The position numbers and the translations under genes were made by a program. Below the pieces are notes generated by a model, which did not search any database, was not told where the DNA came from, and saw nothing but the letters and a program-made list of their open reading frames with translations. A stretch of DNA of 64,000 nucleotides from Treponemataceae bacterium (GTDB lineage: Bacteria > Spirochaetota > Spirochaetia > Treponematales > Rectinemataceae): the NCBI GenBank assembly GCA_963667725.2, contig CAXXHO010000003.1, positions 1,568,001 to 1,632,000 on the forward strand. The letters run 5' to 3'. Each line of letters starts with the position of its first letter. Position 1 is the first letter of the stretch. Positions 48,302 through 55,705 of this stretch are shown here, piece after piece.

Positions 48302-48374
48302 CGGGCTGTAGCGCAGGGGCTAGCGCGCTTGGTTCGGGACCAAGATGTCGGAGGTTCAAATCCTCTCAGCCCGA
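48302..48374 (+). tRNA. tRNA-Pro(CGG)
   Basis: CGGGCTG/CAGCCCG acceptor, CTTGG-TTCGGGA-CCAAG anticodon arm, GGTTCAAATCC T arm. Confidence 0.96.
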
Positions 48375-48409: not shown

Positions 48410-48579
48410 ATTGTCCTACAACAACTTAACGAAAATAAATAACGTTATACGCCACATGTTGCAAAGCTCAAAAAACAGCCCTATTATAGGCAAAAATGAG
48501 GCTCGCGGGGTACAAATGGAGTACATCGTATTTTTTATGCCTCCAGCTCGCGCGCATAACGCTTTTAAGGGAGATAGCC

Positions 48580-49917
48580 ATGGGGACCAAGTACCACCTT
48601 TTTTCACGCGATCGGACCGGAAAGGACGGTAAAATAGTTCGCCGCTGGTACTACTGGTACTGGGGGGAAGATGGCGTAAGGATCAAAAAGGCCGCCGGAC
48701 CTAATGGCAGCGCCCCCCTCCTGAAGAGAGAAGCGCAAGACTACATCGACCAGCTAGATGCCCCTCTAGTAATGCCAGGGCTCATCCCTGCCCTATCTAG
48801 CCCGCCGGCAAGCTTTGCCCCCTATGGAGCACCACGTACATTCAAGGCTTTCGCAGACACTCTCTATCTTCCTGATTCGCAGCATCTCAAGAGGAAAGCG
48901 CTCACCGATGGGGAACCAATCAGTGAAGACACTAGAACAGGGCATCGCAGTCGACTAAAAAACTACCTCATTCCAAAATGGGGCGAATGCTCTTGGGCTA
49001 CGTTTGCAGAACCGGGATTCCCCGATGATTTCACGGATTGGCTTGTTGATCTTGAGAGGATCCCGAAACACAAAGAAGGCACCCGTGTCCCTGATCCAGT
49101 TCCTATCTCCAACTCAACCAGGAATTCTCTTATAGAGACAATGACGATATCCCTAAGGGAAGCGAAACGGGCAAGATTGATCCTACAAGTCCCTGAGTTT
49201 GAGCGATTCAATAGGCTATCTCGTCACCAGGACACCCTTACGAATGAGGAACTGATTAAGCTCTTTCCGGAAGATCCGGATAAGCTCAAGAAAATATGGC
49301 AGCTCGAGGATGGCCGCGACTTGAATACTGGGTTGCTTTTCGGCGCTATGTGTTGTCTCGGAGTGTCGGCGGGGCTTCGATCCGGAGAACTTCGCGCGGT
49401 CTCGGCAGATCAAATAATCCGTACTCGACAACCGGATGGAGCTATGACCTATGGCCTTATAGTTGATAGAGCCTTGAACAGAAATAATGAGATCGCAGGA
49501 CTGAAGAAGGCTAACAAAGAAGATCTTCGCGTCCGTGTTGTCGTTTTATCGGATAAAACCATGCGAATACTTGATATGTACCTAACCAGTATCAAGCACA
49601 AGGAAGGACTACTCTTCCTCCATCGAGGCCAACCGGTTCGGAAAGAGAATCTTGGGAGACGCTGGGCCGGAGGGCTCAAACAAGCGAAGATTCCTTTAAA
49701 AGGGAGGCGGCTTACTCCTCATGCAATGCGGTACACCTACAATACACGCATGAGGATGCTGCTTTCAGAGCAGGTACTCCAGGAGGTAGTCGGACACAGG
49801 TCGGATGCCATGACGGCTCTCTATGATCGGCCTCACCTTGTAGAACGGTTGAAGCAACTATCAGATCAACAAGGTGCTTTCAATAAATTCTGGGGAGAGG
49901 TTAAAGCCATCACCTAA
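48580..49917 (+). CDS. Tyrosine recombinase / phage integrase
   Basis: GLRSGE (R), HAMR (HxxR), GH...TALY (H, Y); AAGGGAG RBS; possible promoter TTGCAA-17-TATTAT at 48459-48487. Confidence 0.93.
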   Translation: MGTKYHLFSRDRTGKDGKIVRRWYYWYWGEDGVRIKKAAGPNGSAPLLKREAQDYIDQLDAPLVMPGLIPALSSPPASFAPYGAPRTFKAFADTLYLPDSQHLKRKALTDGEPISEDTRTGHRSRLKNYLIPKWGECSWATFAEPGFPDDFTDWLVDLERIPKHKEGTRVPDPVPISNSTRNSLIETMTISLREAKRARLILQVPEFERFNRLSRHQDTLTNEELIKLFPEDPDKLKKIWQLEDGRDLNTGLLFGAMCCLGVSAGLRSGELRAVSADQIIRTRQPDGAMTYGLIVDRALNRNNEIAGLKKANKEDLRVRVVVLSDKTMRILDMYLTSIKHKEGLLFLHRGQPVRKENLGRRWAGGLKQAKIPLKGRRLTPHAMRYTYNTRMRMLLSEQVLQEVVGHRSDAMTALYDRPHLVERLKQLSDQQGAFNKFWGEVKAIT

Positions 49918-50025
49918 AAGCAGTAATTGTGAAGTGGTTTTCGCGACCGGAGAATTAGTAACTTCTCAAGCATATCAAGGTAATATTTATTTACTACAGC
50001 CCTCATTAACTAATATTTTTACTTA

Positions 50026-50739
50026 GGGGCTGTACTAGATAAAATAAGATGTTATACTTAAAAAGTGATCATAAGTCATTGCAGGTTAATGAAAAGAACA
50101 CAAGAAAGACTCCTCGAATTCTTTGTGCTAGAAGTAACTGCTAGATCTGCTGCAAATATACTAGAAATTCATTCTAATTCTGCAGCTCTTTTCTATCGGA
50201 AAATTCGTCAAGTTATAGCCTTTCATGTAGCCCAGGAAGCAGCTGAAGTATTCAATGGTGAAGTAGAAATCGATGAAAGCTACTTCGGTGGAGTTCGCAA
50301 AGGTAAACGAGGCCGAGGCGCTGCTGGGAAAGTAGTCGTCTTTGGCATGCTAAAGCGCCATGGCAAGGTTTTCACCGTTGTTGTGGAGAATACCAAGACA
50401 AAGACCCTAATGAACGAAATTGCCCGTAAAATCAAGCCCGATAGCGTTGTCTATACTGATGCCTATCATAGTTACGATGCGTTGGACGTTAGTGAATTCC
50501 ATCATCTCCGAATAAATCATTCAGATATATTTGTTGATGAAAAGAATCACATCAACGGAATAGAAAACTTTTGGAACCAAGCTAAAAGAGTATTAAGAAA
50601 GTACAATGGAATAGACAAGAAATATTTCTATCTGTTTCTGAAAGAATGTGAGTTCCGATTCAACTACGGAACACCAAAGAATCAACTTAAAATTCTTAGA
50701 AAATGGTGCTCAATCTAGACTTTTATCTAGTACAGCCCC
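50026..50739 (+). mobile_element. IS1595-family (IS1016 group) insertion sequence, 714 bp
   Basis: Perfect 19-bp terminal inverted repeats GGGGCTGTACTAGATAAAA; 8-bp target duplication TTTACTTA at 50018-50025 and 50740-50747. Confidence 0.95.
50065..50718 (+). CDS. IS1016-like DDE transposase
   Basis: LLEFFVLEVTARSAA, EIDESYFGG, GKRGRGAAGK, YTD, NHINGIENFW, LKECEFRFN. Confidence 0.95.
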   Translation: MIISHCRLMKRTQERLLEFFVLEVTARSAANILEIHSNSAALFYRKIRQVIAFHVAQEAAEVFNGEVEIDESYFGGVRKGKRGRGAAGKVVVFGMLKRHGKVFTVVVENTKTKTLMNEIARKIKPDSVVYTDAYHSYDALDVSEFHHLRINHSDIFVDEKNHINGIENFWNQAKRVLRKYNGIDKKYFYLFLKECEFRFNYGTPKNQLKILRKWCSI

Positions 50740-50780
50740 TTTACTTATTACCTTATCCGAAGAAAAGCAATAAAATAGTA

Positions 50781-51587
50781 TTAGTTTTTTGATATTTTGG
50801 GTCTTTTAATATTAAACAAGAGTCTTTCTGCATCAATTGCTTTATTTATGTAAGTCAACATGCACAAAGCGAGAATATACATTACTATTCCTATAATGAC
50901 TAAGACAATTGAATTCACAATATCAATGGCCATGTAGATTGCAATGGTTAAGCCGAATAATACTCCAAATGCGATAATTAACGAATACTGGTAAGCTTCA
51001 CGAGTATCTTTTGAGATTGATGAAAAATATAAAACCAAACTCGATGCAGCAAATATCATAGCTGGCGAGACAAAAATCACCGCAATAGTCCATTCCAGAA
51101 TAGCTACTCCACTAATACCTACAAAAGCAATCGCAAGACTCAATTCGAGTATCCCTAATACCCATGCAATAACAACGGAAGGTAATACTATTTCTCCTAA
51201 TTTTGTTATAAAAATTGATCTTATGCTCATTGGCATACAAACAAGTGTTTCCAAAGTACCCTGTTCTTTTTCCTCAATAATAAGGCTAATTCCAATGATA
51301 AATGGAAAAGCTAACTGTAAAAGTAAATAATATAAAGGTAACACATTATTAAAAATCACTAAATATGCCGGATTAACAGTACCTTGGTATCTAGCAAGAG
51401 TCACCGCCCAAAATCTGCTCTGATTTGTAAGCGCTACCACATCAATTAAATTACCAAAGGTTATTGAATAGACTGCGATATTCATTATTATCAGCAATAA
51501 AGGTATTGCAATAAGTGCACTTGCATTCTTTTTATCAGCAAAGATATACCTAAGGTCACTTTTAATTAAGAATAATCTTGAATTCAT
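50781..51587 (-). CDS. ABC-2 type permease (peptide export/immunity)
   Basis: EEKEQGTLETLVCMP motif, six TM helices; AT-rich. Confidence 0.85.
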   Translation of the reverse strand: MNSRLFLIKSDLRYIFADKKNASALIAIPLLLIIMNIAVYSITFGNLIDVVALTNQSRFWAVTLARYQGTVNPAYLVIFNNVLPLYYLLLQLAFPFIIGISLIIEEKEQGTLETLVCMPMSIRSIFITKLGEIVLPSVVIAWVLGILELSLAIAFVGISGVAILEWTIAVIFVSPAMIFAASSLVLYFSSISKDTREAYQYSLIIAFGVLFGLTIAIYMAIDIVNSIVLVIIGIVMYILALCMLTYINKAIDAERLLFNIKRPKISKN

Positions 51588-52306
51588 ATTATTTTCCCTC
51601 GTGCTTTAAAATAAGCGTCACCAAGGTTATCACAGCTGTATCTTTCATATATGTTTTGGATAGTATCTTCGCATACAATTTTTGATTTAAAAAGAAAACC
51701 GATATGAGAGCAGAAAGCTTGGCAAAATACTAGATCATGTGAACTAATAAAAAAAGTTACCCCATTTTGGGAATTTAAGATTTTTATAAGCCGAATTACA
51801 CTCTCGGCGCCTTCCGGATCTAAATTTGCAAAAGGTTCATCCCAAAAAACGAGAATTGGTCTGTGGATAATTGAGCGCACTAGATCTACTTTTTTCTTAT
51901 TCCCTGAGGACAAAGCGGAATATTTTGTTTTCTTATATTCAGAAATGTATAGTTGATCCATTAGTTCGCTTAGCTCGTTTTTTGAAAGAGTGTTGGGATA
52001 AAAACCAGCATAAAACGCTAGATTCTGATCAACCGTAAGATGAGGTCGAAGCATAGTTTCTTCTGTAGATACCCCTGCGAGTTTGTGTATCTTTTCTTTT
52101 TCTTTCATTGGATTAATGCCAAGTATACTTACATATCCGCTTTCAATACGAAATAAACCATTCATTACCCTAATTAAGCTCGTTTTCCCGGCTCCGTTGG
52201 ATCCCAAGAGCCCATAAATTGATTTTTCTTTGCATGACACAGATACATTGTTAAGGATTGTTTTTTCACCAATTGTTTTTACTATATTTTGCACATCAAT
52301 AATCAT
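51584..52306 (-). CDS. ABC transporter ATP-binding protein
   Basis: GSNGAGKT, LSSGNKKK, WDEPFANLD, SSH; AGGAG RBS before ATG 52306. Confidence 0.9.
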   Translation of the reverse strand: MIIDVQNIVKTIGEKTILNNVSVSCKEKSIYGLLGSNGAGKTSLIRVMNGLFRIESGYVSILGINPMKEKEKIHKLAGVSTEETMLRPHLTVDQNLAFYAGFYPNTLSKNELSELMDQLYISEYKKTKYSALSSGNKKKVDLVRSIIHRPILVFWDEPFANLDPEGAESVIRLIKILNSQNGVTFFISSHDLVFCQAFCSHIGFLFKSKIVCEDTIQNIYERYSCDNLGDAYFKARGKII

Positions 52307-52308
52307 CT

Positions 52309-52854
52309 TTAGCTCCTGAAATACTTGATCAAGCCCGGCAACTGAACACACTCCATTATACAAATAAGCTTTATTGTGTCGCTAATGAAATTTTCATAGC
52401 TCTTTTTTTTCATATGATAGACAAGACTTACATAAATTGCTTGGAGCACTGTAATTACTATCATTACTAAGGTAATAGGTGCTCTCCGTCCATCCAATTG
52501 ACTTCCAAAAGCAAATAACGAATAAGATTGTGGATTATTTTTATAATATATCAATAAAACCGCTATCAGCCCACTAAAAATCCAAAATGAACTAGCAACC
52601 ACAGAAATAAAAAGACGAGAATCCTTTTCTGCCTCAAATGTAAGTAGGAAGAATACCTTTTTATATATTATTACTAATATTAAATATGTCACTACTTGTA
52701 AGAAAAACATTACGAAGGTCATTGTACGAGAGACCAGAAAAGCCAATCCAGGTAAAGAAGCCACACCTAAAATGGTATTATTATCCTGAATCAACAACGT
52801 TTGGAGACCAGCACATACTAGAAGTGATACAGCGATGAAAACATACCTTTTCAT
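52309..52854 (-). CDS. Multi-pass membrane protein (Yip1-like by position)
   Basis: 4-5 hydrophobic segments; translationally coupled to the SpoIIM-like gene. Confidence 0.65.
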   Translation of the reverse strand: MKRYVFIAVSLLVCAGLQTLLIQDNNTILGVASLPGLAFLVSRTMTFVMFFLQVVTYLILVIIYKKVFFLLTFEAEKDSRLFISVVASSFWIFSGLIAVLLIYYKNNPQSYSLFAFGSQLDGRRAPITLVMIVITVLQAIYVSLVYHMKKKSYENFISDTIKLICIMECVQLPGLIKYFRS

Positions 52855-53357
52855 AATATTCTTATATATGAATTTATGCTTTTTAGAAGTGAAGACTCAA
52901 CAAATGCTCCAATAATGAGCAACATTAATGCGAGTACTGAAGTAAACATGAGTTCCATCTCCAGGTGTGTTTTACGACGGAATATCTTATTCATAACGCT
53001 TGAAAATCCAACTGCAGTCATAAGACAATATGCGGTTAGCTCACTAAAAAAAACAATCCATACCCCTTTATCAATAAAAGAGTACAAACTAATATACGGA
53101 AGAACATATGAGAAGAATATCACTGAATTAGTAACAGAAACTAATAAAGTTGAAAGGCCATATGTATAAATCCCAGATGCGAGCAATATACTTACTAATA
53201 TGTTGCTGAACAAAATACCAAAAGCATTTTTTTCGGTTAATTTTCCACCAAGCTGCAATACCCTGGAAGGAATTAATACCTGATTAACGATATATAATAG
53301 AGTCCAATATAAAATACAAATTGCTAATAAGCCCAAGAAGAAGGTTCGATTCTTCAT
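52851..53357 (-). CDS. SpoIIM/DUF95-like membrane protein
   Basis: ILFSNILV..G..T.G...L....N, central EL, C-terminal LLIIGAFVE match the DUF95 pattern; canonical PHG not visible. Confidence 0.7.
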   Translation of the reverse strand: MKNRTFFLGLLAICILYWTLLYIVNQVLIPSRVLQLGGKLTEKNAFGILFSNILVSILLASGIYTYGLSTLLVSVTNSVIFFSYVLPYISLYSFIDKGVWIVFFSELTAYCLMTAVGFSSVMNKIFRRKTHLEMELMFTSVLALMLLIIGAFVESSLLKSINSYIRIL

Positions 53358-53381
53358 TTTCTAGGATTTTGAGGTAATTTA

Positions 53382-53418
53382 CTAAAGGCAGCGGATTTGG
53401 GATCTCCGCTGCCTTTAG
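53382..53418 (-). terminator. Intra-operon hairpin directly after the peptide gene
   Basis: Perfect 14-bp stem CTAAAGGCAGCGGA/TCCGCTGCCTTTAG with 9-nt loop and only a short U tract. Confidence 0.75.
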
Positions 53419-53419
53419 C

Positions 53420-53632
53420 TTACAGCCCCCAGGATGTAATCATTCCAAGAAGGAACCATCCTGCAGGACCAGCAGCACCGCATGCTAATGCGGCTACGCT
53501 AAAGTAGGTGCTGCCGATAAAGACGCCGACACCAACTCCGGGAATAAAGAGTGCGAGATTCGCCCCTCCCGAAATCAGTCCCACAAGAACAAGCCCCAAC
53601 AGCCATGCAATACCTTTCACCTTTTTTTGCAT
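53420..53632 (-). CDS. Putative circular bacteriocin precursor, 70 aa
   Basis: AAGGAGG RBS; MQKKVKGIAWLLGLVLVGLISGGAN followed by a Gly/Ala-rich hydrophobic core; first gene of a DUF95/membrane/ABC operon. Confidence 0.7.
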   Translation of the reverse strand: MQKKVKGIAWLLGLVLVGLISGGANLALFIPGVGVGVFIGSTYFSVAALACGAAGPAGWFLLGMITSWGL

Positions 53633-53661
53633 GAGCTCCTCCTTAAAAAATACCAAATTCG

Positions 53662-53690
53662 ACTATAAATCTGAAAATGTTACCTGTCAA
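53662..53690 (-). promoter_or_regulatory. Near-consensus sigma70 promoter of the peptide operon
   Basis: Minus strand TTGACA-17 bp-TATAGT, 30 bp upstream of the ATG. Confidence 0.8.
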
Positions 53691-54192
53691 TTAAAATAGT
53701 ATAAAATCGTATAACAGTGCCCTGGTACAAAGAAGAAAAATGTTTATTGATGATGAAAATATGGCAATGTATAATAAAGATGCATTACAGAATTTTAAGG
53801 TACTTTATTACTATAGTTACCTATTTTCATGAAGGATTCTTTTACAAGTACAATTGCTTATAGAGTTCGTTCACCTTCTTCTACAATTCGAGCGATTTCT
53901 TGTAGAATTCGGGCAAGCTTACCGACAATACTTCCACTGAATAACTTTATGCTATTGAGCTCACTTCGACATTCGTTGACTAACTTCTAAATCTCTGATT
54001 ACTTCCTTGTTAGCAGCTAGTTGCTTCCCGAGGGCTGGTTTTAAAATCCAAAGGCTGCGCCCCCCCGACACGGCACCAAGAATGAAAGCAAGAGAGTACG
54101 TTCCAAAAAAAATACCAGCAACGAACTAATAAGTAGAGGTAATAAACCAAAGAAGATGAGCATATTAGTTAATAAAGCTAATAACCTCTCTT

Positions 54193-54507
54193 CTATTTCA
54201 CTTCAAATCGCCCTGCCCTAAACCGGAGGTCTTCAGCACTCTTTTTCGCGAACTCCTCGATGTGATCCTCGAACTTGACCAAGAAAGATCCCATCTCGTC
54301 ATATTCGAAAGCTTCATCTGCAACGAAAACGAGACGAATTTTCTGGTTTGATGCTGCATTCTTCAGTGTGAATTTTTGCCACCCTTGGCCAGTATTCCTA
54401 TTTGGCTCGTCCCAGATCAAGAGCAAGCCAGGGAACCTTCTGTTAAAACGTTCCTGGAGATCCTTACAAGCAAGATCTCTATTTTGATCACCACTCTTGA
54501 AAAACGT
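54193..54507 (-). pseudogene. Hypothetical ORF (104 codons) with ACG where a start is expected
   Basis: GAGGGAGG-CAGGT-ACG opens a frame that continues into the 77-aa tracked ORF. Confidence 0.4.
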
Positions 54508-54751
54508 ACCTGCCTCCCTCTATCAGAACCAAAATTGAAAGAAAGAACATACTAGGCAACACGGATAGTCTCAAGGAGCTTTCAAGATGTTAGTTTTTCG
54601 ACTGCCGATCAATTCCCAAGATTAGTACTCACAATCGAAATTATTCCAACGACATCAAGCAAGAAGCGCCTTTTCTAAAGGAGAGTTATGGCTTAAAACA
54701 TAACGCTCTCTCTTGCCACGACTACTACTCCTCAAGAAATTATGGATCACT

Positions 54752-54998
54752 TTATCTAGTTTTTGAAGTCGTCCTTAGCTTTGGGCCTAGCCTATGTAGG
54801 TTTTTCCAATAGAGTTCACAAAATTCTTTCATATTAAGTAAGACGAAAGTCGTGAATTCATCAATTTTCTTATCTTCATCTTTCTTTTTTAGTCTCGCTA
54901 TAGTTGTCCCCAATACTGTCAGAAAAGAATAAACCGTCTGATGTTTTATGCCCGATGTTACTGCGACGGCAGTTTATATAGTTTTCTTAGTTAAGCAT
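54752..54998 (-). pseudogene. Decayed HU/IHF-like DNA-binding protein gene
   Basis: Frame reads AVAVTSGIKHQTVYSFLTVLGTTIARLKKKDEDKKIDEFTTFVL, resembling HU (AVA..SG...TI...KK.E...I..F.TF); stop and frameshift near the 5' end. Confidence 0.4.
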
Positions 54999-55028
54999 GG
55001 AATAGGATAATATTTTTGCAGCCCGGGC

Positions 55029-55403
55029 TTAGGCTTCCGACCCGTTTTTCACAAGTTCTGTATCTTCAATCGCTAGTGCATGAATCGTATCGCAGAAATA
55101 TCTAGACATATTTGGTGAAATAACGTCAAGATCATTAACCGCTTGACGCCACCGTCGAGCTTTTGCATAAAACTCCGCTTCGGATGCGGATAAGATGATT
55201 GGCTCCACTCCAGTTACAAAGTACTCAACAGTTGTATTCAAGGCTGTCGCAATACCTACTGCTGCATCAGCGGGTGGTATTGTTTTTCTTGATGACCATC
55301 TTCTAAAAGAATCTGATCGTACTCCTATCTTTTGTGATACCCAGTCCATAGTAGTATTTTCAGACTCGATCTTCTGCCTAATACGGGACCAAAAGTTTTC
55401 CAT
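55029..55403 (-). CDS. XRE-family HTH repressor (CI-like, no peptidase domain)
   Basis: FWSRI...VSQKIGV.......W....TIP.......IA.AL.TTVEYFVTG; divergent from the early operon. Confidence 0.88.
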   Translation of the reverse strand: MENFWSRIRQKIESENTTMDWVSQKIGVRSDSFRRWSSRKTIPPADAAVGIATALNTTVEYFVTGVEPIILSASEAEFYAKARRWRQAVNDLDVISPNMSRYFCDTIHALAIEDTELVKNGSEA

Positions 55404-55409
55404 ACCTAA

Positions 55410-55505
55410 ATTATCGTCAAAAAGTGGCAATATTGCCTCTTTTTTCTATTGACATTATGGCAGTTTAGCCACATTAATATATTATGAGTGTGGCAAAAAT
55501 GCAAC
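55410..55505. promoter_or_regulatory. Genetic switch with three 16-bp operators and divergent promoters
   Basis: GTGGCAATATTGCCTC (55424), ATGGCAGTTTAGCCAC (55457), GTGGCAAAAATGCAAC (55490); TTGACA at 55449; minus-strand GATAAT at 55415-55410. Confidence 0.8.
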
Positions 55506-55705
55506 GAAGACGAGATATCAACGATCTGTCAGTAAAAATTCCTTTTGAAGGGAACGAAAGAAGCCGGTTCATATGTTTTGCCAAGGCTAGAACATTAGTG
55601 CAAGGCCAATGGATTAGAAAGCTAATACTAGAAGAAATGTCAGCCCTCGAAGCCAAAGAAACCCATATAGAAAAAGAAGAAACCTTACTCCGGAGCCAAT
55701 CATGA
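55484..55705 (+). CDS. Small DNA-binding protein in the Cro position (ribbon-helix-helix-like)
   Basis: Strand SVKIPF then two helices, including GQWIRKLILEEM; first gene divergent from the repressor. Confidence 0.6.
   Translation: MSVAKMQRRRDINDLSVKIPFEGNERSRFICFAKARTLVQGQWIRKLILEEMSALEAKETHIEKEETLLRSQS

Follow-up and report, generated by a model that had tools for sequence, protein, structure and literature searches.

Confirmed circular bacteriocins measure 58–70 aa (PMC7132975), with altitudin S at 76 aa (PMC7132975; bioRxiv 10.1101/2025.10.31.685828), and they are divided into subgroups I and II (bioRxiv 10.1101/2025.10.31.685828); further comparison literature is available (PMC8659200). 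The class-defining gene encodes a SpoIIM/DUF95 protein (PMC13289728; PMC11580447), which is specific to circular and not to leaderless clusters (PMC11580447). This DUF95 protein has been proposed to do both cleavage and ligation, although the cyclisation enzyme and chemistry are still described as unresolved (PMC13463998). In long-leader precursors a small residue at leader position −2 mirrors the penultimate core residue and the +1 residue is hydrophobic, whilst the −1 position of pumicyclin A tolerates A, D and K (PMC13463998). A dedicated small cationic hydrophobic immunity gene is a further feature of the clusters (PMC6131525). The candidates of a large mining study numbered 6,925 in Firmicutes, with two more in Actinobacteria and one in Thermotogae (PMC8534725); a further source describes ten rumen candidates, nine of them in Lachnospiraceae, in passages that do not mention Treponema (PMC13289728). 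Across the titles and abstract starts that were covered, no spirochaete, 45-residue or uncharged circular bacteriocin was described; subscription journals lie mostly outside this coverage, and supplementary tables of mining papers may hold such peptides.

The window, by which we mean the whole 64,000-nucleotide stretch of DNA analysed, encodes a 70-aa peptide at positions 53420–53632 on the minus strand, and its translation is the peptide described in an earlier reading of the DNA made without database searches (the sequence-only reading). Residues 1–25 end in Asn25, and the remaining 45 aa contain no D, E, K, R or H, a single Cys, 16 Gly or Ala and Leu at both ends (GRAVY 1.50), so that translation reproduced the 25-aa and 45-aa parts, the lack of charge, the one Cys and the Leu ends given in that reading. 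The cyclic monoisotopic mass predicted for this core was calculated as 4439.33 Da. The gene heads a five-gene cassette on the same strand, where it is followed by genes for a SpoIIM/DUF95-like protein, a 181-aa membrane protein, an ABC ATPase and a permease (Table 1). A cassette of circular-bacteriocin type had been proposed, and the SpoIIM-like gene, the membrane protein and the ABC pair support this.

Table 1. Features of the precursor cassette and its surroundings in the window.
Feature	Position	Strand	Basis or remark
Predicted leader, residues 1–25	53558..53632	−	Basic N-terminus, hydrophobic middle; poorly conserved
Predicted core Leu26–Leu70, 45 aa, uncharged, with stop codon	53420..53557	−	Alignment, composition
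Sigma-70-like promoter, TTGACA-17-TATAGT	53662..53690	−	Consensus match only; 11/12 positions
Perfect 14-bp hairpin directly 3' of the precursor stop	53382..53418	−	Similar ones in L009 and L017
SpoIIM/DUF95-like membrane protein, 168 aa	52851..53357	−	PF01944, 19 bits, E 0.0014, below the cut-off of 26.9
Multi-pass membrane protein of no known family, 181 aa	52309..52854	−	Gene order conserved; rough scan shows 5 hydrophobic segments
ATPase of an ABC transporter, 240 aa, lacking a peptidase domain	51584..52306	−	Family search
ABC-2-type permease, 268 aa	50781..51587	−	PF12679, E 2.6e-5, below cut-off
tRNA-Pro(CGG) at the left edge of the carrier element	48302..48374	+	Final 44 bp repeated ~39.8 kb downstream, beyond the window
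Carrier-element tyrosine integrase	48496..49917	+	Family search
IS1595 transposase beside the cassette end	50065..50718	+	Family search
CI/RstR-like repressor of the carrier element	55029..55430	−	Matches below cut-off

The precursor ATG is preceded by an AAGGAGG ribosome-binding site (RBS), and the promoter-like site ~30 bp upstream of the gene was the best of 19 sigma-70-like sites in 50000–55600, a count not above that of shuffled sequence (19.2). Hairpins resembling the one that follows the window precursor were also present after the homologous genes of loci L009 and L017, and none was found in L016 or L010. The hairpin likely stabilises or attenuates the transcript, which would leave the precursor in excess. 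Uncharged last 45 residues were seen in only 4 of 6155 six-frame Met-start ORFs of 55–90 aa in the genome, the precursor among them, and an uncharged run of 45 residues lay within 98 of 3148 long ORFs. Comparison of the window and L016 cores revealed synonymous codons at 16 of 28 conserved residues. The reading of the precursor as an artefact was rejected on the conserved family and these synonymous changes, and the gene is real. Upstream of the promoter, the AT-rich stretch 53700–55000 holds only short ORFs (40–77 aa) that lack an RBS and are probably decayed genes, including a 40-aa hydrophobic ORF at 54041–54163 on the minus strand.

Single-sequence word-indexed searches with the precursor and with the SpoIIM-like protein returned the query alone. 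A full HMMER search found three homologues of the precursor (~50% identity) and iteration with alignments found nine more, giving 12 homologues and 13 sequences in total, which form seven lineages at 75% core identity, the window's included. We regard the family as real and apparently not described before; its short neutral peptides are probably cyclised head to tail. Its hosts, where known, are spirochaetes, and it is rare: the window's own genome was the only one of 69 in the host family to carry the precursor, which was also present in 3 of 338 genomes of the genus Treponema, in 2 of 401 genomes sampled from the family of that genus and, with the first four-row profile, in 1 of 401 genomes sampled from the phylum. 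The SpoIIM profile had matches in 2 of 401 genomes of an order sample, and many genomes in these counts are incomplete.

No family of Pfam, NCBIfam or PHROGs covered the precursor, and no bacteriocin match was obtained for the precursor family in Pfam or NCBIfam. Searches with tblastn gave no match for the precursor in plasmids and phages, nor for the L016 SpoIIM-like protein in plasmids; PDB sequence searches yielded 0 matches, and two viral scans gave no match. In the ESM Atlas all scores were below 0.9, with circular-bacteriocin clusters at ranks 8, 9 and 14 (0.77), which serve as leads only. Several candidate relatives were dropped. Weak matches in 7 of 60 relatives lay within longer reading frames (136–600 aa), the viral-scan candidates L013 and L014 were stretches of long ORFs that are tape-measure-like by context, and L011 was a 15-residue match with no precursor-like ORF.

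Genomic context was available for five loci (window, L009, L016, L017 and L010); eight of the 12 homologues came without it. The order precursor, SpoIIM-like gene, ~181-aa membrane gene was seen in four of these five (window, L009, L016 and L017), and the three homologues from Treponema-genus genomes are each followed by these two genes. Both loci of sufficient length (window and L009) go on to the ABC pair, L016 and L017 ending inside the third gene; the window permease is 34% identical to its L009 counterpart over 173 aa. In L010, whose contig ends at 1232 bp, the precursor is followed instead by a gene for a 137-aa, four-segment membrane protein (L010:669-1082), beside a tRNA-Glu. This protein matched neither the SpoIIM nor the 181-aa profile significantly, and it could be an immunity protein or reflect a different cassette layout. 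The L010 precursor belongs to a 71-aa lineage with Phe at −1 (P0010, P0012 and P0014–P0016).

The alignment located the leader/core boundary at the position proposed by the sequence-only reading, between residues 25 and 26. Leu26 was invariant (13/13), and mean pairwise identity over 11 rows rose abruptly there, from 0.28 in the leader to 0.61 in the core. The residues before position 26 were variable and included indels, with leaders of 23–26 aa, and the core was 45 aa long in ten members and 46 aa in three. All 13 cores start with L-[GTAS]-L-x-x-P and end with W-x-[A/L] at the stop codon, with no C-terminal extension; the invariant core residues are L26, L28, P31, S41, A50, G55, P56, W59, G63 and W68. 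The short core without D, E, K, R or H, first noted in the window, proved to be a family trait (13/13). Both core ends were hydrophobic in every member, as in circular bacteriocin precursors. Core Cys counts ranged from 0 to 3, with three only in the related P0006 and P0013, the one lineage in which the sequences would make a disulphide possible.

The residue before Leu26 was Phe in five members, Cys in four, Asn in three and His in one (n = 13), and Asn was replaced by Cys between P0006 and P0013, whose cores are 82% identical. A leader end of IPN, given for butyrivibriocin in the sequence-only reading, is shared by two homologues. That reading had assigned the precursor a gassericin-type Asn leader end and had named a non-conserved Asn25 as its own refutation; with Asn in 3 of 13 this is what was found, and the assignment has to be given up. 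Leu–Leu ligation, which it had also proposed, cannot be general, as the last core residue was Ala in eight members and Leu in five. Position −2 was occupied by P, G or A in all 13 sequences, and the penultimate position by G, S or A. The pattern of a small −2 and a hydrophobic +1 residue held in 13/13 at bond 25/26 and in at most 10/13 at the eight other bonds tested, although the residue classes, with Pro counted as small, were set after viewing the alignment and the 13 sequences amount to seven lineages, so that the comparison is a consistency check and not an independent test. Variability at −1, together with small residues at −2 and in the penultimate position, agrees with the DUF95 model, so that the Asn label is refuted and cyclisation is not. 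The specificity of the cut would then lie in the core ends and the small −2 residue rather than in Asn. An N25A change would probably be uninformative, given that the −1 position of pumicyclin A took A, D and K (PMC13463998).

PF01944 was the best family for all four SpoIIM-like orthologues, at 19 (window), 14.9, 33.7 (L016) and 24.8 bits, and one of the four, that of L016, passed the Pfam cut-off of 26.9. Four known bacteriocin SpoIIMs run as controls scored 27.6–52.4 bits, a range that includes the L016 orthologue. Profile–profile alignment of the family with four subgroup II SpoIIMs covered 104 columns, at E 0.0016 and a probability of 16%. The PHG motif, invariant in all four fetched subgroup II SpoIIMs, is missing from the family, which keeps two Asn and two Glu positions (N52, N77, E106 and E154); the absence of PHG and retention of these four leave fewer candidate catalytic residues. 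The 181-aa protein is like the accessory proteins of subgroup II in nothing but size and hydrophobicity; profile comparisons with them were negative, and the names Yip1 and GaaB homologue were rejected for it on this ground. Neither of the two complete cassettes (window and L009) was found to contain a further small ORF that is cationic, hydrophobic and equipped with an RBS, in agreement with the sequence-only reading, which had seen no such immunity gene.

Class features of circular bacteriocin clusters found in the cassette are the SpoIIM/DUF95 gene (one of four orthologues over the Pfam cut-off), the ABC ATPase with its transporter (window and L009) and a precursor with an N-terminal leader, hydrophobic core ends and no C-terminal extension (13/13). 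The core, at 45–46 aa, falls outside the range of 58–70 aa, and that of the window is 13 residues shorter than its lower end. Circular bacteriocins have four to five helices in a saposin-like or helical-bundle fold; low-confidence models of the spirochaete core gave two helices for the isolated linear core and three for the core within the precursor. Resemblance to subgroup II (gassericin A, plantaricyclin A and paracyclicin; PF12173) extends to a long hydrophobic leader (23–26 aa against 27–35 aa in four fetched precursors, and within the subgroup range of 22–35; bioRxiv 10.1101/2025.10.31.685828), a SpoIIM protein of ~160–170 aa, an accessory membrane protein of 165–180 aa, an ABC pair, hydrophobic core ends and a small penultimate residue. 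An annotated class IIc cyclic bacteriocin plasmid has the same order of precursor, SpoIIM and a ~170-aa hypothetical protein. In contrast, subgroup II cores are 58 aa long with 3–5 charges, compared with 45–46 aa and none in the spirochaete family, which also differs in its −1 residue (N, H, C or F), in the Trp at core position −3, in its spirochaete hosts, in a SpoIIM lacking PHG and in an accessory protein that cannot be aligned. The −1 residue of the four fetched subgroup II precursors, from annotated plasmids and with the last 58 residues taken as core, was Asn in three and Asp in one. A PF12173 search gave no match for the four members of the first alignment (4/4) or for P0020 (controls 168 and 91 bits), and the probability in a profile–profile comparison of the precursor family with subgroup II was 0.1%. 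The subgroup II link of the sequence-only reading therefore found no sequence relation behind it in family or profile searches.

Subgroup I (AS-48, circularin A, pumicyclin A and others) shares the DUF95/SpoIIM and ABC cassette, and, as in pumicyclin A, a tolerant leader −1 position and a small P2 residue mirrored by the penultimate residue (PMC13463998). Its members are cationic (net +2 to +6), 60–70 aa long and built of four to five helices (bioRxiv 10.1101/2025.10.31.685828; PMC7132975), whereas the spirochaete family is neutral, 45–46 aa long and has two predicted helices; the polybasic region of subgroup I is missing, with no K or R in any of the 13 cores. The putative circular bacteriocin 'alkalicyclin' of Alkalibacterium AK22 is likewise reported to lack basic residues; by its published description it belongs to family ii and is devoid of aromatic residues (PMC7132975), against invariant Trp residues here. 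The cassette is built like a circular bacteriocin cluster, and it fits neither subgroup I, on charge, nor subgroup II, on sequence, length, charge and Asn.

Our preferred reading, which we regard as evenly balanced, is that the peptide is cut before Leu26, closed head to tail and exported as a membrane-acting antibacterial. Within it, cyclisation by the cassette machinery seems to us very probable; given cyclisation, 25/26 is with high confidence the bond cut, and an antibacterial role is likely. The SpoIIM-like protein, probably with the 181-aa protein, would cut bond 25/26 in the inner membrane and ligate Leu26 to the C-terminal residue; the ring would be exported through the ABC transporter, and the ABC pair and the membrane proteins would protect the producer. 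The invariant P31 and P56 split such a ring into an arc of 24–25 residues and one of 19 residues. The arc across the predicted junction is exactly 19 residues long in 13/13, with a mean hydropathy of 1.66–1.84, and the only core indel is located in the arc that does not cross the junction. The 19-residue arc would exist only after ligation, and its predicted length and hydropathy are those of a membrane-spanning segment. The ring would be a closed two-helix hairpin of membrane-spanning size. With Gly, Ala and Ser making up 42–53% of the cores, rings could pack through Gly/Ala/Ser faces into a leak or bind a membrane protein; as they carry no charge, their entry into membranes would rely on partitioning or on a membrane-protein receptor and not on electrostatic attraction.

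AlphaFold2 models were of low confidence, with two helices (6–29 and 31–44) after a disordered start for the linear core (pLDDT 61.5) and four helices, three of them in the core, for the precursor (pLDDT 60.9). In fold searches the two models matched helical structures of a generic kind (best Z 8.4 and 4.9), and no circular bacteriocin stood among the 50 matches listed. As a tentative and somewhat doubtful extension, the family could be a third lineage of head-to-tail cyclised peptides, from diderm spirochaetes: a neutral closed two-helix hairpin, its second membrane-spanning helix made by ligation, served by a SpoIIM without PHG and doing without electrostatic targeting or a dedicated immunity protein, possibly within the producer's membrane.

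A neutral, very hydrophobic ring would be poorly soluble, which speaks against the preferred reading and suits a peptide retained in the membrane no less than a secreted toxin. The peptide might be cut at 25/26 and cyclised but kept in the producer's membrane to serve the element or the host, for instance by excluding phages or related elements, by adjusting membrane permeability or by signalling. We consider this unlikely, though the absence of a dedicated immunity gene from both complete cassettes would accord with such a non-toxin role. It would also suit the uncharged cores (0 charges in 13/13 against 3–5 in the four fetched subgroup II cores), the two arcs of membrane-spanning length, the integrative DNA and the patchy occurrence (1/69 in the host family and 3/338 in the Treponema genus). 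However, the ABC exporter, the strong promoter-like site and the hairpin behind the precursor suit a product made in quantity and exported, activity is known for circular bacteriocins that are nearly neutral, butyrivibriocin AR10 for one (PMC7132975), and the paracyclicin plasmid, in an incomplete gene table, also has no annotated immunity gene.

The remaining readings place the cut or its outcome elsewhere. Quite unlikely, in our view, is a linear product, in which the basic-hydrophobic N-terminus would act as a Sec-type signal or membrane anchor that signal peptidase I takes off, with the SpoIIM-like protein and the ABC pair serving only export or immunity. The leader, with 1–4 basic and no acidic residues ahead of a hydrophobic stretch, the small residue (G, T, A or S) at position 27 in 13/13 and the SpoIIM-like protein without PHG would agree with this, but under a simple (−3,−1) small-residue rule at most 7/13 members comply at any of nine bonds (residues 21–29). 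Both core ends are, moreover, tightly conserved at fixed spacing, as expected for ligation, and SpoIIM is specific to circular, not leaderless, clusters (PMC11580447). Neither of the other cuts allowed for by the sequence-only reading, after GG or by signal peptidase at GGA, is conserved: at the GGA site 6/13 members satisfy the rule and −1 is Pro in 7/13, and the GG pair of the window leader occurs in 1/13. The latter pair, the Gly/Ala-rich core and a Bacteriocin_IIc cluster as a weak feature-space neighbour (score 0.76, rank 28; a lead only) are what can be said for a class II bacteriocin with a double-glycine leader, which a transporter carrying a peptidase domain would cut after G22-G23; with an ATPase of 240 aa that has no peptidase domain, this reading is scarcely credible and appears largely refuted by the alignment. 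Cyclisation after a cut at residue 28 (a 42-residue ring) or at ~21 (a ~49-residue ring) is very unlikely. A small P2 with a hydrophobic P1' does occur in 10/13 at 28/29 and in 9/13 at 21/22, yet L26 and L28 are invariant, which would not be needed in a leader known as tolerant, and the residues before 26 vary and include indels.

If the proposed ring is true, it would be smaller than described circular bacteriocins and unrelated to them in sequence. A 45-residue substrate with natural variation at −1 (N, H, C or F) and a SpoIIM without PHG would offer a minimal, informative system for the DUF95 single-enzyme model, and a neutral ring would test whether membrane activity needs charge. With mining candidates reported from Firmicutes, Actinobacteria and Thermotogae (PMC8534725), the spirochaete family would extend the class to a new phylum. 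As the precursor was missed by Pfam, NCBIfam and PHROGs, similar families may have been overlooked.

The cassette is AT-rich cargo on mobile DNA in both the window and L009. In the window it lies between an IS1595 transposase and a CI-like repressor, and the four genes after the precursor have 32–35% GC, compared with 58% in the flanking host DNA. The repeated 44 bp at the end of the tRNA-Pro, which form a direct repeat, indicate an integrated element that runs from position 48332 to genome position C3:1656153 (~39.8 kb). Its genes include an integrase, a repressor, an excisionase-like gene, a RusA-like gene, a ParB gene and a replication initiator, and this phage-like early set is followed by a long run of AT-rich cargo genes. 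No virion structural families were found among the 19 element proteins scanned, which represent part of its ORFs. In L009 the cassette is flanked by a 312-bp direct repeat (90% identical; L009:6270-6581 and L009:9700-10011), which we take to be the 3' end of a gene resembling fumarate hydratase, as recognised from its sequence, and this suggests that the cassette was inserted at that gene end. The IS1595 copy in the window (49990–50770) abuts the permease gene, with related copies (77–96% identity) elsewhere in the genome. A small ABC-type trio of 189, 203 and 215 aa was also observed ~2.5 kb upstream of the L017 precursor (L025:3742-5582, minus strand).
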